DNA from: Escherichia coli
GTDB lineage: Bacteria; Pseudomonadota; Gammaproteobacteria; Enterobacterales; Enterobacteriaceae
Reading direction: 5' to 3' (one strand)
Length of the DNA stretch: 64,000 nt
Assembly: GCF_050320075.1 (NCBI RefSeq)
Contig: NZ_CP190018.1
Positions within the stretch are counted from its first letter, which is position 1. The number at the start of each line of letters is the position of its first letter. The position numbers were made by a program, and so were the translations under genes. Of this stretch, positions 29,686 to 32,428 are shown piece after piece. The notes beneath the pieces were generated by a model. It did no database searches and was not told the origin of the DNA. It saw only the letters and a list, made by a program, of their open reading frames with translations.

Positions 29686-32019
29686 TTGGCCAACTCATCC
29701 TCACGATATTCCGTTCTGACTGCCGCCCACTGGGGGCCCATGCTGGTTGAAACTGACGGCGAAACCGTGCTTAGCTCGCGTGGCGCGTTAACCACAGGAA
29801 TGGAAAACTCCTTGCAGAGCGCGGTTCGCGACCAGGTTCACAGCAATACGCGGGTACGATTTCCAATGGTGCGCAAAGGCTTTCTCGCGTCACCGGAAAA
29901 ACCGCAAGGCATTCGCGGGCAGGATGAATTTGTTCGTGTGAGTTGGGATGAGGCGCTGGAGCTTATTCACCAACAACATAAACGCATTCGTGAGGCTTAT
30001 GGTCCGGCATCGATTTTTGCTGGTTCCTACGGCTGGCGTTCAAACGGCGTGCTGCATAAGGCCTCGACATTATTACAACGCTATATGGCGCTGGCAGGCG
30101 GTTATACCGGGCATCTGGGGGATTATTCGACCGGTGCAGCACAGGCGATCATGCCGTATGTCGTGGGGGGCAGCGAAGTTTATCAACAGCAAACCAGTTG
30201 GCCCCTGGTGCTGGAACATAGCGATGTCGTGGTGCTGTGGAGTGCTAATCCACTCAATACGCTGAAAATTGCGTGGAATGCATCCGATGAGCAGGGGCTT
30301 TCTTACTTTTCCGCACTGCGTGACAGCGGGAAAAAGCTGATCTGCATTGATCCAATGCGATCGGAAACCGTCGATTTCTTTGGCGATAAAATGGAGTGGG
30401 TGGCACCGCACATGGGCACCGATGTTGCGCTGATGCTGGGGATCGCCCATACGCTGGTGGAAAATGGTTGGCACGACGAAGCGTTTCTGGCGCGTTGCAC
30501 CACCGGTTATGCCGTCTTCGCCTCTTATTTGCTGGGCGAGAGTGACGGAATAGCCAAAACCGCCGAATGGGCGGCAGGGATTTGTGGAGTTAACGCAGAG
30601 AAAATCCGCGAGCTGGCGGCTCTTTTCCACCAAAACACGACCATGCTGATGGCTGGCTGGGGAATGCAGCGTCAACAGTTTGGTGAGCAAAAACACTGGA
30701 TGATCGTCACGCTGGCGGCAATGTTGGGGCAAATCGGCACACCCGGCGGCGGTTTTGGTCTTTCTTATCATTTTGCCAATGGTGGTAACCCCACGCGGCG
30801 TTCTGCGGTGCTCTCTTCCATGCAGGGCAGCTTGCCTGGCGGCACCGATGCGGTAGATAAAATCCCTGTTGCCCGCATTGTTGAAGCACTGGAAAACCCT
30901 GGTGGCGCATATCAACACAACGGTATGAACCGACATTTCCCGGATATTCGTTTTATCTGGTGGGCGGGCGGTGCCAACTTTACTCATCATCAGGATACCA
31001 ATCGCCTGATCCGTGCCTGGCAAAAACCGGAGCTGGTGGTGATCTCTGAATGCTTCTGGACGGCTGCGGCGAAACACGCGGATATCGTTCTGCCTGCGAC
31101 CACTTCGTTTGAGCGTAATGATCTCACCATGACCGGCGATTACAGCAATCAGCATCTGGTGCCGATGAAACAAGTGGTGCCGCCACGTTATGAAGCGCGT
31201 AATGATTTTGATGTCTTTGCCGAGTTGAGTGAACGTTGGGAGAAGGGCGGCTATGCGCGGTTTACGGAAGGAAAAAGTGAGCTGCAATGGCTGGAAACGT
31301 TTTATAACGTTGCCCGGCAGCGCGGGGCAAGCCAGCAGGTTGAATTGTCGCCATTTGCTGAGTTCTGGCAAGCCAACCAGTTAATTGAGATGCCGGAAAA
31401 CCCGGACAGTGAGCGGTTTATTCGCTTCGCCGATTTTCGCCGCGATCCGCAGGCGCATCCATTAAAAACCGCCAGCGGTAAGATTGAAATATTCTCGCAG
31501 CGTATTGCCGATTATGGTTACCAGGATTGCCCTGGGCATCCGATGTGGCTGGAGCCGGATGAGTGGCAGGGCAATGCCGAACCAGAACAGTTGCAGGTAC
31601 TTTCTGCTCATCCGGCACATCGTCTGCACAGCCAGCTGAATTACAGTTCTCTGCGCGAATTGTACGCGGTGGCAAATCGTGAGCCTGTCACCATTCATCC
31701 TGACGATGCCCAGGCGCGCGGCATACAAGATGGCGATATTGTTCGGTTGTGGAACGCACGCGGGCAAATTCTTGCCGGAGCGGTCATTAGCGAGGGAATT
31801 AAACCTGGCGTGATTTGTATTCATGAAGGGGCATGGCCGGATCTGGATTTAACCGCTGACGGTATTTGTAAAAACGGCGCGGTGAACGTTCTGACCAAAG
31901 ATCTCCCCAGCTCGCGGCTGGGGAATGGCTGTGCGGGTAATACGGCACTGGCATGGCTGGAAAAATACAACGGTCCGGAACTGACACTTACAGCGTTTGA
32001 ACCACCGGCCAGCTCATAA
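29686..32019 (+). CDS. bisC: biotin sulfoxide reductase (molybdopterin oxidoreductase), 777 aa
   Basis: ORF track 29686..32019 (TTG start as in the track). Confidence 0.9.
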
Positions 32020-32428
32020 TCCAGGTGGGTAGTTGGGTTTCATCCTGCCATGCGCAGTCGACAATGTGAAAACCCTGCGCATGGTAAAAATCTATCGCCG
32101 GTTGATTTTTTTGATAAACCTCCAGCATCAGATGGGGATGGCGCTGCTGCACATACTGCATTAGCGCCTTACCAATACCGCGTCTGACGGCCTTCGGTGC
32201 GACAAACATTGCAGCCAGAAATCGGCCTTCCATAATGCTGACAAAACCGAGAAGCTTACCGTCTTCTTCCCAGACCCAGTTTTGCGCATTGGCAAGATAG
32301 GCATCCCGCACCAGCGGAATGCAATCACGCCAGTAATTCGCTTTTATAAAGGGATGCCCCCAGGTTGTACTTTCCAGCCACAGTTCGAGGATCGCGGGGA
32401 GTTCTGAACGTTGCGCTTCCCGAATCAT
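31988..32428 (-). CDS. yiaC: GNAT-family N-acetyltransferase, 146 aa
   Basis: ORF track 31988..32428; 3' end overlaps bisC 3' end by 32 bp. Confidence 0.8.

Follow-up and report, generated by a model that had tools for sequence, protein, structure and literature searches.

In the 64,000-nucleotide stretch of Escherichia coli DNA analysed here (contig NZ_CP190018.1, henceforth referred to as the window), a tag-yiaC operon converges on bisC. The 32-bp coding overlap of the two facing genes, both of full length, is most likely a passive junction that has been frozen in place end to end, with no dedicated regulatory device built into it. We infer passivity because dual coding constraint by itself suffices to explain the conservation of the overlap; against this reading, a selected antisense module would also show equally long conservation.

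The bisC gene (29686..32019, plus strand) was delineated from the open reading frame list and RefSeq as encoding a 777-aa biotin sulfoxide reductase, with a TTG start and a TAA stop at 32017-32019, and its product carries the Pfam Molybdopterin and Molydop_binding domains of a molybdopterin oxidoreductase. Oxidised biotin and methionine are repaired by BisC. On the minus strand, tag (32425..32988) encodes 3-methyladenine DNA glycosylase I, which is 187 aa long when read from the MERCGW start to the TGA stop at 32427-32425 and matches PF03352 (methyladenine glycosylase) in Pfam over residues 6-181. The minus-strand yiaC gene (31988..32428; ATG at 32428-32426, TAA stop at 31990-31988) encodes a 146-aa GNAT lysine acetyltransferase/lactylase with a Pfam GNAT acetyltransferase domain at residues 12-123, and the protein has already been characterised by experiment (PMC6199490, PMC9636275). 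The same gene relationships are annotated by RefSeq in a strain that is 100% identical over the 1.9 kb compared (window 31400-33300), and RefSeq gives the same arrangement in K-12 MG1655 (tag 3713092-3713655, yiaC 3713652-3714092, bisC complement 3714061-3716394). Both bisC and yiaC are genuine protein genes by their Pfam domains, their cross-genus homologs and their frame-specific substitutions.

The tail-to-tail overlap of bisC and yiaC, as read from the sequence and the open reading frame list, occupies positions 31988..32019 on both strands. The preliminary description had placed the bisC stop 32 bp inside the 3' end of yiaC, and this proved exact to the base: both stops were unchanged when the frames were re-examined, and the open reading frames agree with the K-12 RefSeq annotation. 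It was also correct that a terminator of either gene must fall within the partner. Codon position 1 of one gene lies opposite position 1 of the other, position 2 opposite position 3, and position 3 opposite position 2. The yiaC TAA lies on the strand complementary to the BisC Leu-Thr codons CTT-ACA, and the bisC TAA on the strand complementary to the YiaC Ile-Met codons ATT-ATG; both dipeptides are conserved.

This mirror-image embedding of each stop in a conserved dipeptide of the partner explains the stability of the overlap, which measures 32 bp in 13 of 15 Enterobacteriaceae loci (Escherichia spp., Salmonella, Citrobacter, a Raoultella/Klebsiella-like locus, Enterobacter, Kosakonia, Lelliottia and Pseudescherichia) and 38 bp in the other two, which represent two genera. 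A scan of contigs with YiaC peptides matched Escherichia only, and the wider loci were obtained by protein search and contig look-ups. The two lengths alternate because a synonymous change in the BisC Leu codon makes or removes the yiaC stop; where this codon is CTG, the preceding Leu-Thr repeat supplies the stop and the overlap is 38 bp. The length keeps to these two values across genera although YiaC identity there is only 56–62%, and the overlap is kept in 5421 of 5426 complete E. coli genomes. Among 13 taxa, 23 of the 32 overlap columns (72%) are invariant, compared to 42–51% in the flanks, and where the overlap varies, the site is the second codon position of yiaC and hence the third of bisC.

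The ends of both proteins can be read within these 32 bp. YiaC residues I137-M138-S139-W140 (32009..32020, minus strand) form the end of the last beta-strand and lie opposite the variable last residues of BisC. Residues P141-L146 and the stop (31988..32008, minus strand) form a low-confidence, variable tail that is antisense to the conserved BisC L-T-A-F-E/D-P-P-A. In the AlphaFold model of YiaC, which has a mean pLDDT of 94.8, the last strand spans residues 133-140, and the mean pLDDT of residues 141-146 is ~ 60. Homologs of 32–44% identity almost always retain M138 and W140. The tail residues vary, and distant homologs stop 1–12 residues past the tryptophan. Folded YiaC is accordingly modelled as ending at W140 (window 32009). 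The tail of BisC shares homology with DMSO/TMAO reductase C-termini, with an alignment to residue 778/780 of 1EU1 and also to 4DMR and 7L5I, and the last two to three residues of BisC vary among the loci compared. The family-conserved part of BisC ends at about P774/A775 (window ~ 32010). Base changes over the YiaC tail obey the bisC frame.

In the proposed mechanism, the dispensable last residues of each gene would read over the constrained end of the partner up to the first in-frame stop, and mutual coding constraint would have locked the overlap to a length of 32 bp throughout the Enterobacteriaceae. The overlap would have arisen once bisC came to adjoin an older tag-yiaC pair. In Dickeya, tag and yiaC overlap by 4 nt and bisC is absent, and a second outgroup likewise has tag-yiaC without bisC. 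Since bisC is missing beside the Dickeya tag-yiaC pair, its abutment came later.

That one 3' end has been mis-called and no coding overlap really exists is next to impossible. Many overlaps longer than 60 bp are indeed misannotated, including 3'-end extensions in convergent pairs (Pallejà 2008, PMC2478687), but the present overlap measures just 32 bp, and it recurs in every locus compared as well as in nearly all of the complete genomes counted above. Furthermore, stop codons fix their own position and both open reading frames are unambiguous. The proteins have normal lengths, BisC by comparison with 1EU1 and YiaC by comparison with YjaB (2KCW) and distant homologs. An annotation artefact was rejected on these three grounds of unambiguous stops, normal protein lengths and conservation. 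Loss of a stop codon lengthening bisC or yiaC was also rejected, as both proteins are of family-typical length.

The overlap is real and conserved, yet statistically it is not unusual. [quoted passage not shown] Like the convergent overlapping pairs described previously (Rogozin 2002; PMC2478687; PMC4161906), bisC/yiaC consists of real genes with a short overlap (< 60 bp) that is conserved between species and places each stop inside the partner. Nothing essential separates it from these pairs; it is notable for its stability at exactly 32 or 38 bp.

The preliminary description had also suggested transcriptional interference or shared termination at the overlap. Shared termination was not borne out: the candidate hairpins are unconserved and without U-tracts, and what is listed for the yiaC strand is a bicyclomycin-sensitive region ~ 252 nt past the yiaC stop. 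If intrinsic terminators were embedded in the opposite coding sequence, hairpins there would end both transcripts, perhaps in both directions. Two structures in the window point that way. The minus-strand, terminator-like site found by scanning and folding at 31925..31903 folds into a hairpin (CCCCAGC-CGCGA-GCTGGGG) followed by a weak run of T. The plus-strand structure at 32049..32085, within yiaC and 3' of the bisC stop, is an inverted repeat (CCATGCGCAG...CTGCGCATGG) that forms a perfect 10-bp stem in this strain. As a class, 146 of 165 convergent excludons have overlapping terminators predicted by TransTermHP (PMC12288877).

Neither structure has the marks of a terminator. The hairpin at 31903..31925 has a fold z-score of −2.2 and no proper U-tract, and it was rejected as a conserved terminator because its pairs fall to 4–5 of 7 in five genera without compensatory change; the stem simply results from the codons for P-S-S-R-L-G in bisC. 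The inverted repeat was rejected on a z-score of −1.76 and an A-rich tail (UAAAAAUC) in place of a U-tract, and its pairing is already down to 8 of 10 in K-12 and to 6–7 of 10 in four genera, again without compensatory change. The terminator scan as a whole was at background (6 sites against 4.9 ± 2.5 in shuffled sequence). Scanning, folding of both strands and comparison of the 15 loci gave no conserved intrinsic terminator on either strand, and a search of 29400-33400 against Rfam (E ≤ 1) gave no match to a structured RNA or sRNA. The 3'-end mapping called for in the preliminary description was sought in published data: no Term-seq 3' end falls in K-12 3713400-3714599 among the entries listed by Adams 2021, these being thresholded lists whose silence is weak evidence, and the TERMITe supplements have no entry for yiaC or bisC. 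Embedded or shared intrinsic terminators are thus largely refuted, and the chance that they end these transcripts is very small.

Peters et al. (2012) reportedly described how Rho ends read-through RNAs that are untranslated or antisense. A termination of this kind is suggested on the yiaC side by supplementary file 2 of Adams 2021 (PMC7815308), which lists a bicyclomycin-sensitive region at K-12 3714344 (+) with a Rho score of 7.3 (p = 5.5e-14); the site is approximate, as it was derived from low read counts (90/23 vs 60/112) in 800-nt windows. By offset mapping the peak lies at about window 31736, antisense to bisC. The putative untranslated tag-yiaC read-through RNA (31730..31987, minus strand) is antisense to bisC, C-rich and G-poor, and hence rut-like. 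From the yiaC stop to ~ 230 nt beyond it, the C/G ratio exceeds 1 in most windows (1.35–2.0, with one at 1.0) and falls below 1 near 31730, an excess of C over G being a soft criterion for a rut site. Past the yiaC stop, the tag-yiaC RNA would therefore run on untranslated and antisense into bisC until Rho ends it ~ 250 nt on, and with the RNA continuing to this site both mRNAs would necessarily overlap. The yiaC side thereby resembles Rho-dependent termination of antisense or untranslated read-through (PMC7815308), with C-rich, G-poor RNA and bicyclomycin sensitivity ~ 250 nt on. It differs from defined Rho terminators in that the region is mapped at low resolution and low coverage.

Antisense transcription at this locus raises the question of a selected convergent excludon, in which read-through from tag-yiaC into bisC, from bisC into yiaC-tag, or both, would set expression levels reciprocally, either because polymerases collide or because RNase III cuts the mRNA duplex, and Rho would tune how far this goes. 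The pair does appear in the published list: Table 1 of the ExcludonFinder study (Sanmartin et al. 2025, PMC12288877) includes yiaC-bisC among 165 convergent excludons detected in at least 50% of 58 MG1655 RNA-seq sets. Once both are expressed, however, genes with overlapping coding regions would enter such an RNA-seq list almost automatically. Synteny is higher for excludon pairs taken as a class (PMC12288877), and the yiaC/bisC overlap is kept across Enterobacteriaceae, but dual coding constraint accounts fully for this conservation and the substitutions track the protein frames. Antisense RNA that reads into bisC and is limited by Rho has been recorded (PMC7815308), but the low read counts in this sole quantitative data set suggest that collisions should be rare. 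YiaC is up under oxidative stress (PMC6199490), and together with the repair role of BisC a functional link is conceivable. Pair-specific anticorrelation, expression or dsRNA data for yiaC-bisC were not found in the papers searched, in which the p19 dsRNA data speak at class level only. The yiaC-bisC pair resembles convergent excludons, a concept derived from Listeria, in the overlapping transcription of convergent neighbours. Classical excludons have a long-UTR overlap and mutually exclusive expression, whereas in yiaC-bisC it is the coding sequences themselves that overlap. On balance, a selected excludon is unlikely here.

In its strongest form, for which the chances are slightly poorer still, the overlap would be a selected, Rho-tunable antisense switch: lower Rho activity or more tag-yiaC transcription, for example under oxidative stress, would lead antisense RNA and converging polymerases to cut bisC expression, and the reverse. 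If true, such a switch would connect sulfoxide repair with an operon for protein acylation and DNA repair throughout the Enterobacteriaceae. The passive abutment of two coding ends remains the preferred reading of the convergent side.

At the other end of yiaC, the tag TGA overlaps the yiaC ATG in the tetranucleotide ATGA (32425..32428, minus strand), as seen in the sequence and the open reading frame list. The preliminary description had reported this junction and proposed a translationally coupled tag-yiaC operon. The ATGA at 32428..32425 agrees among the sequence, the K-12 annotation and PMC6199490, and an operon is a reasonable reading that had already been put forward by Christensen 2018 (PMC6199490), who noted the 4-nt overlap and the polycistronic nature of the pair as well as a possible separate yiaC promoter within tag. 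The tag-yiaC junction leaves no intergenic space for a promoter.

Translational coupling from tag to yiaC in E. coli is plausible from the sequence, since the Shine-Dalgarno match of E. coli yiaC is the weakest among the taxa compared, equalled by Escherichia sp. MOD1. The match is a Shine-Dalgarno-like GGGAA (32436..32441, minus strand) within the Pro-Gly-Asn codons of tag, and its predicted duplex with the anti-Shine-Dalgarno sequence amounts to −4.3 kcal/mol in E. coli and MOD1, −5.7 to −11.0 kcal/mol in other Escherichia lineages and −6.6 to −11.1 kcal/mol in other genera. Ribosomes ending tag would reinitiate at the ATGA and would likely provide most yiaC translation. Genes in the trp operon have stop/start-overlapped junctions and are translationally coupled. 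Coupled operon genes with ATGA or TAATG junctions share with tag-yiaC the common strand, the 4-nt overlap and a Shine-Dalgarno sequence inside the last codons of the upstream gene, which is weak in E. coli; coupling is here suggested by sequence, and the junction is plastic (overlaps of 1, 4 or 20–26 nt, or a 6-nt gap). It is TAATG in E. whittamii and E1V33, a 20–26-nt overlap in other genera and GTGA in Dickeya. Within the first 50 kb of the window, three other gene pairs have a 4-nt overlap: dppD/dppF, bcsG/bcsF and bcsF/bcsE.

Alternatively, yiaC may be translated, and perhaps transcribed, apart from tag by means of its own Shine-Dalgarno sequence, an internal promoter or both, and ATGA would then be mere compact spacing. 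Several observations favour this: the promoter proposed inside tag (PMC6199490), the good Shine-Dalgarno sequences of most other genera, located 4–6 nt 5' of the ATG, and one outgroup in which tag and yiaC are parted by a 6-nt gap with no overlap. In C. rodentium, yiaC is intact behind a frameshifted tag, and coupling is therefore not obligatory everywhere. Against these stand the weak Shine-Dalgarno sequence of E. coli, where the stop/start overlap is also tightest, and the retention of stop/start overlap or near-contact from Dickeya to Escherichia. In addition, a promoter scan found none above background within tag (6 sites, where 3.7 ± 2.1 would be expected). Independent expression of yiaC in E. 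coli is doubtful, with a chance well short of even.

Both the bisC/yiaC and the tag/yiaC overlaps are ordinary compact bacterial gene packing and are already annotated and published. Newly described here are the constancy of 32 or 38 bp in 15 loci, the placement of the stops in partner dipeptides, the YiaC tail after W140, the homology of the BisC tail and the Dickeya locus without bisC. A practical consequence is that a clean deletion, recoding or tagging at the 3' end of yiaC or bisC changes the partner gene. The Keio design reportedly retains the last six codons and the stop of each deleted gene. If so, deleting bisC would take away the stop of yiaC together with its last residues, and deleting yiaC would cost bisC its final three codons and its stop. 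Partner damage may therefore be worth checking in the knockout phenotypes of bisC and of yiaC, whose product currently attracts study as a lysine acetylase/lactylase. The biological importance of the overlap is small. The locus is a clean example of how mutual coding constraint alone can freeze a convergent overlap for a very long time, and since coding constraint suffices here, conservation of an overlap is in itself no evidence of regulation.

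The genes bisC (biotin sulfoxide reductase) and yiaC (GNAT lysine acetyltransferase/lactylase) converge and share exactly 32 bp of coding sequence on opposite strands (31988-32019). Direct reading of the window and an ORF listing place bisC at 29686-32019 on the plus strand (TTG start, 777 aa, TAA stop at 32017-32019), yiaC at 31988-32428 on the minus strand (ATG at 32428-32426, 146 aa, TAA stop at 31990-31988) and tag, the 3-methyladenine DNA glycosylase I gene, at 32425-32988 on the minus strand (187 aa, TGA stop at 32427-32425). Re-reading of the frames placed both convergent stops as claimed in the preliminary description, with the bisC stop 32 bp inside the yiaC 3' end, and its tag TGA overlapping the yiaC ATG as ATGA (32428-32425, minus strand) was likewise borne out. 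Pfam identified the products of bisC, yiaC and tag as molybdopterin oxidoreductase, GNAT acetyltransferase and methyladenine glycosylase, respectively. The same overlaps are annotated by RefSeq for all three genes in an identical strain and in K-12 MG1655 (tag 3713092-3713655, yiaC 3713652-3714092, bisC complement 3714061-3716394). Several E. coli chromosomes match a 1.9-kb stretch around the overlap at 100% identity. Of 5426 complete genomes, 5422 contain this stretch, and 5421 contain a 111-nt segment with the overlap at its centre at ≥95% identity. An AGGAG-like Shine-Dalgarno (SD) sequence (-6.9 kcal/mol) lies upstream of the bisC TTG start (29686-29688); because gene calls elsewhere differ in length (759 aa in E. 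ludwigii, 804 aa in Kosakonia), this start is less certain than the stop.

Fifteen loci were compared, including five further Escherichia lineages and loci reached via YiaC homologs in Salmonella, Citrobacter amalonaticus, C. rodentium, Raoultella/Klebsiella-like, Enterobacter ludwigii, Kosakonia, Lelliottia and Pseudescherichia. bisC converges on yiaC in all 15, with an overlap of 32 bp in 13 and of 38 bp in Kosakonia and Lelliottia. The two stops are embedded in mirror-image fashion: YiaC Ile137-Met138 (ATT or ATC, then ATG) provides, on the complementary strand, the bisC stop (TAA/TGA), and BisC Leu-Thr (CTT or CTC, then ACN) likewise provides the yiaC stop (TAA/TGA). Leu-Thr occurs twice in a row in BisC (L-T-L-T). 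The 38-bp overlaps arise where the second Leu codon is the synonymous CTG: the yiaC stop is then lost, and the strand opposite the first Leu-Thr provides one six bases further on.

Among 13 non-redundant taxa, 23 of the 32 overlap columns (72%) are invariant, compared to 42-51% in the flanking single-coding stretches. The third positions of yiaC within the overlap are nearly invariant (9/11), and variation falls at second positions of yiaC codons, which coincide with third positions of bisC codons; over the distal ~20 nt, selection therefore tracks the reading frame of bisC. In the proximal ~12 nt, the YiaC motif I-M-x-W does not change, whereas BisC is variable in its final two or three residues (ASS, ANS, ANP, ASP, ANA). 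This pattern fits the needs of each protein. The alignment of the BisC tail (…EKYxGPxLTLTAFDPP) with the Rhodobacter DMSO reductases 1EU1 and 4DMR and the TMAO reductase 7L5I extends to within two residues of their C-termini, which marks the tail as an ancient element of the fold. In the AlphaFold model of YiaC (mean pLDDT 94.8), the last beta-strand comprises residues 133-140, and residues 141-146 are without secondary structure (mean pLDDT ~60). M138 and W140 are kept in YiaC homologs of 32-44% identity, most of which end 1-12 residues past the Trp. The overall length of YiaC is that of its paralog YjaB (2KCW), and lengthening of either gene was rejected since both are of normal length. The overlap is the abutment of two normal-length genes whose dispensable last residues read across each other.

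This geometry leaves no room for a private terminator, as had been noted from the sequence: any terminator of either gene must fall inside its partner. The accompanying proposal of shared termination was not supported, since no conserved intrinsic terminator was observed on either strand and published data favour Rho. A generic scan returned 6 terminator-like sites versus 4.9 ± 2.5 in shuffled sequences, and Rfam gave no match at the bisC/yiaC/tag locus. Two candidates were rejected as conserved terminators. A minus-strand hairpin at 31925-31903 (fold z-score -2.2) carries a weak T tail and coincides with conserved BisC P-S-S-R-L-G codons; in five genera it keeps 4-5 of its 7 pairs, with no compensatory changes. 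A plus-strand 10-bp stem inside yiaC (32049-32085), followed by UAAAAAUC (z-score -1.8), is reduced to 8/10 pairs within E. coli itself (K-12) and to 6-7/10 pairs in four genera. The inverted repeat of this stem is polymorphic within the species, being perfect in the window strain and carrying two mismatches in K-12, where CAGGCACAG replaces the HAQ codons CATGCGCAG, turning His into Gln, and GAC has become GAT.

Adams et al. 2021 (PMC7815308, supplementary file 2) reported a bicyclomycin-dependent termination region on the yiaC strand, classed as antisense to bisC, with its peak at K-12 3714344 (upstream/downstream reads 90/23 without and 60/112 with bicyclomycin; Rho score 7.3, p = 5.5e-14). 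Mapping by offset puts this peak, 252 nt past the yiaC stop, at approximately 31736 in the window. Most of the RNA between stop and peak is rich in C and poor in G, with a C/G ratio of 1.35-2.0 for most of the segments scored and of 1.0 for one, before G enrichment sets in near the peak. The lists of that study, which are thresholded and of modest depth, contain no further 3' end or Rho region on either strand at K-12 3713400-3714599, and the TERMITe supplements hold no entry for yiaC or bisC. The published data point to Rho termination of the yiaC-strand transcript rather than an intrinsic terminator.

Transcriptional interference had also been suggested, and the pair might conceivably act as a regulatory excludon, i.e. 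neighbouring genes with overlapping opposite-strand transcripts. A catalogue of 165 convergent excludons, each detected in 50% or more of 58 MG1655 RNA-seq sets, includes yiaC-bisC (Sanmartin et al. 2025, PMC12288877); however, the coverage criterion is met almost automatically where coding regions already overlap, and dual coding constraint alone is enough to explain conservation of the overlap. Because expression appears low in the sole quantitative table, we infer that polymerase collisions should be rare.

At the other end of yiaC, a 4-nt overlap with tag in a polycistronic operon, with speculation on a separate promoter, was described by Christensen et al. 2018 (PMC6199490). The ATGA junction is found in E. 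coli, E. albertii and two other Escherichia lineages, and TAATG in E. whittamii and strain E1V33. In genera outside Escherichia (loci L008-L014, locus positions ~3442-4023), a Tag of 192-194 aa is encoded by a frame that extends 20-26 nt into yiaC; shortening of the Tag tail in Escherichia gave the ATGA or TAATG junctions. The yiaC SD sits in conserved Pro-Gly codons of Tag. E. coli has the weakest predicted pairing of this SD (-4.3 kcal/mol); values are -6.6 to -11.1 kcal/mol in other genera and -5.7 to -11.0 kcal/mol in other Escherichia lineages, except one that is identical to E. coli here. A weak SD, as predicted for E. coli, fits reliance on termination-reinitiation, and a tag-yiaC operon with translational coupling is plausible. 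Coupling is not obligatory everywhere, since yiaC is intact behind a frameshifted tag in C. rodentium (CP082833.1). In this locus (L015, 3443-3999), tag is apparently a frameshifted pseudogene, detected as two tblastn segments in different frames with no gene called; the overlap of yiaC with bisC is preserved there, and the place taken in other loci by the eptB end of the neighbourhood is occupied by an IS4-family transposase.

In Dickeya, tag and yiaC overlap by 4 nt (GTGA) and yiaC is followed by a ~550-nt spacer and a co-oriented dehydrogenase gene, with bisC absent from the locus. In a second outgroup taxon, tag is followed by a 6-nt gap and yiaC, and bisC is likewise absent. Since these outgroups have tag-yiaC without bisC, the pairing predates the juxtaposition with bisC. 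The overlap would have been frozen ever since bisC came beside tag-yiaC, in an arrangement that presumably arose post-Dickeya. The outgroup pair (L017-L020) adjoins glyQS, with yiaD-, yiaF- and ghrB-like genes close by; these neighbourhood genes are those of E. coli in another arrangement, minus bisC.

The bisC/yiaC overlap is not unusual. Convergent overlaps make up ~7% of prokaryotic overlaps, and overlaps are suspect only above 60 bp (Pallejà et al., PMC2478687). In the first 50 kb of the window, two of seven convergent pairs overlap, namely hokA/small ORF and bisC/yiaC, and 4-nt stop/start overlaps besides tag/yiaC occur at dppD/dppF, bcsG/bcsF and bcsF/bcsE. The 24-bp convergent overlap of hokA (plus strand, 25479-25631) with a 23-aa hypothetical ORF (minus strand, 25608-25679) is probably the ysaE-hokA pair of the published excludon list. 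The co-directional xylH/xylG overlap, at 23 nt (12288-12310), is longer than the 1 or 4 nt typical of overlaps within operons. Other features of the window include an IS150 (IS3 family) transposase with a programmed frameshift between glyS and hokA (24008-25377) and three tandem Ldr-family type I toxin genes of 108 nt each between yhjV and bcsG (45722-46796).

The bisC/yiaC and tag/yiaC overlaps themselves were already annotated and published. The present analysis makes minor additions: the constancy of the overlap across genera, the reciprocal, mirror-image placement of each stop within codons of the partner gene, how constraint is divided between the two protein tails, and a probable post-Dickeya origin of the arrangement.
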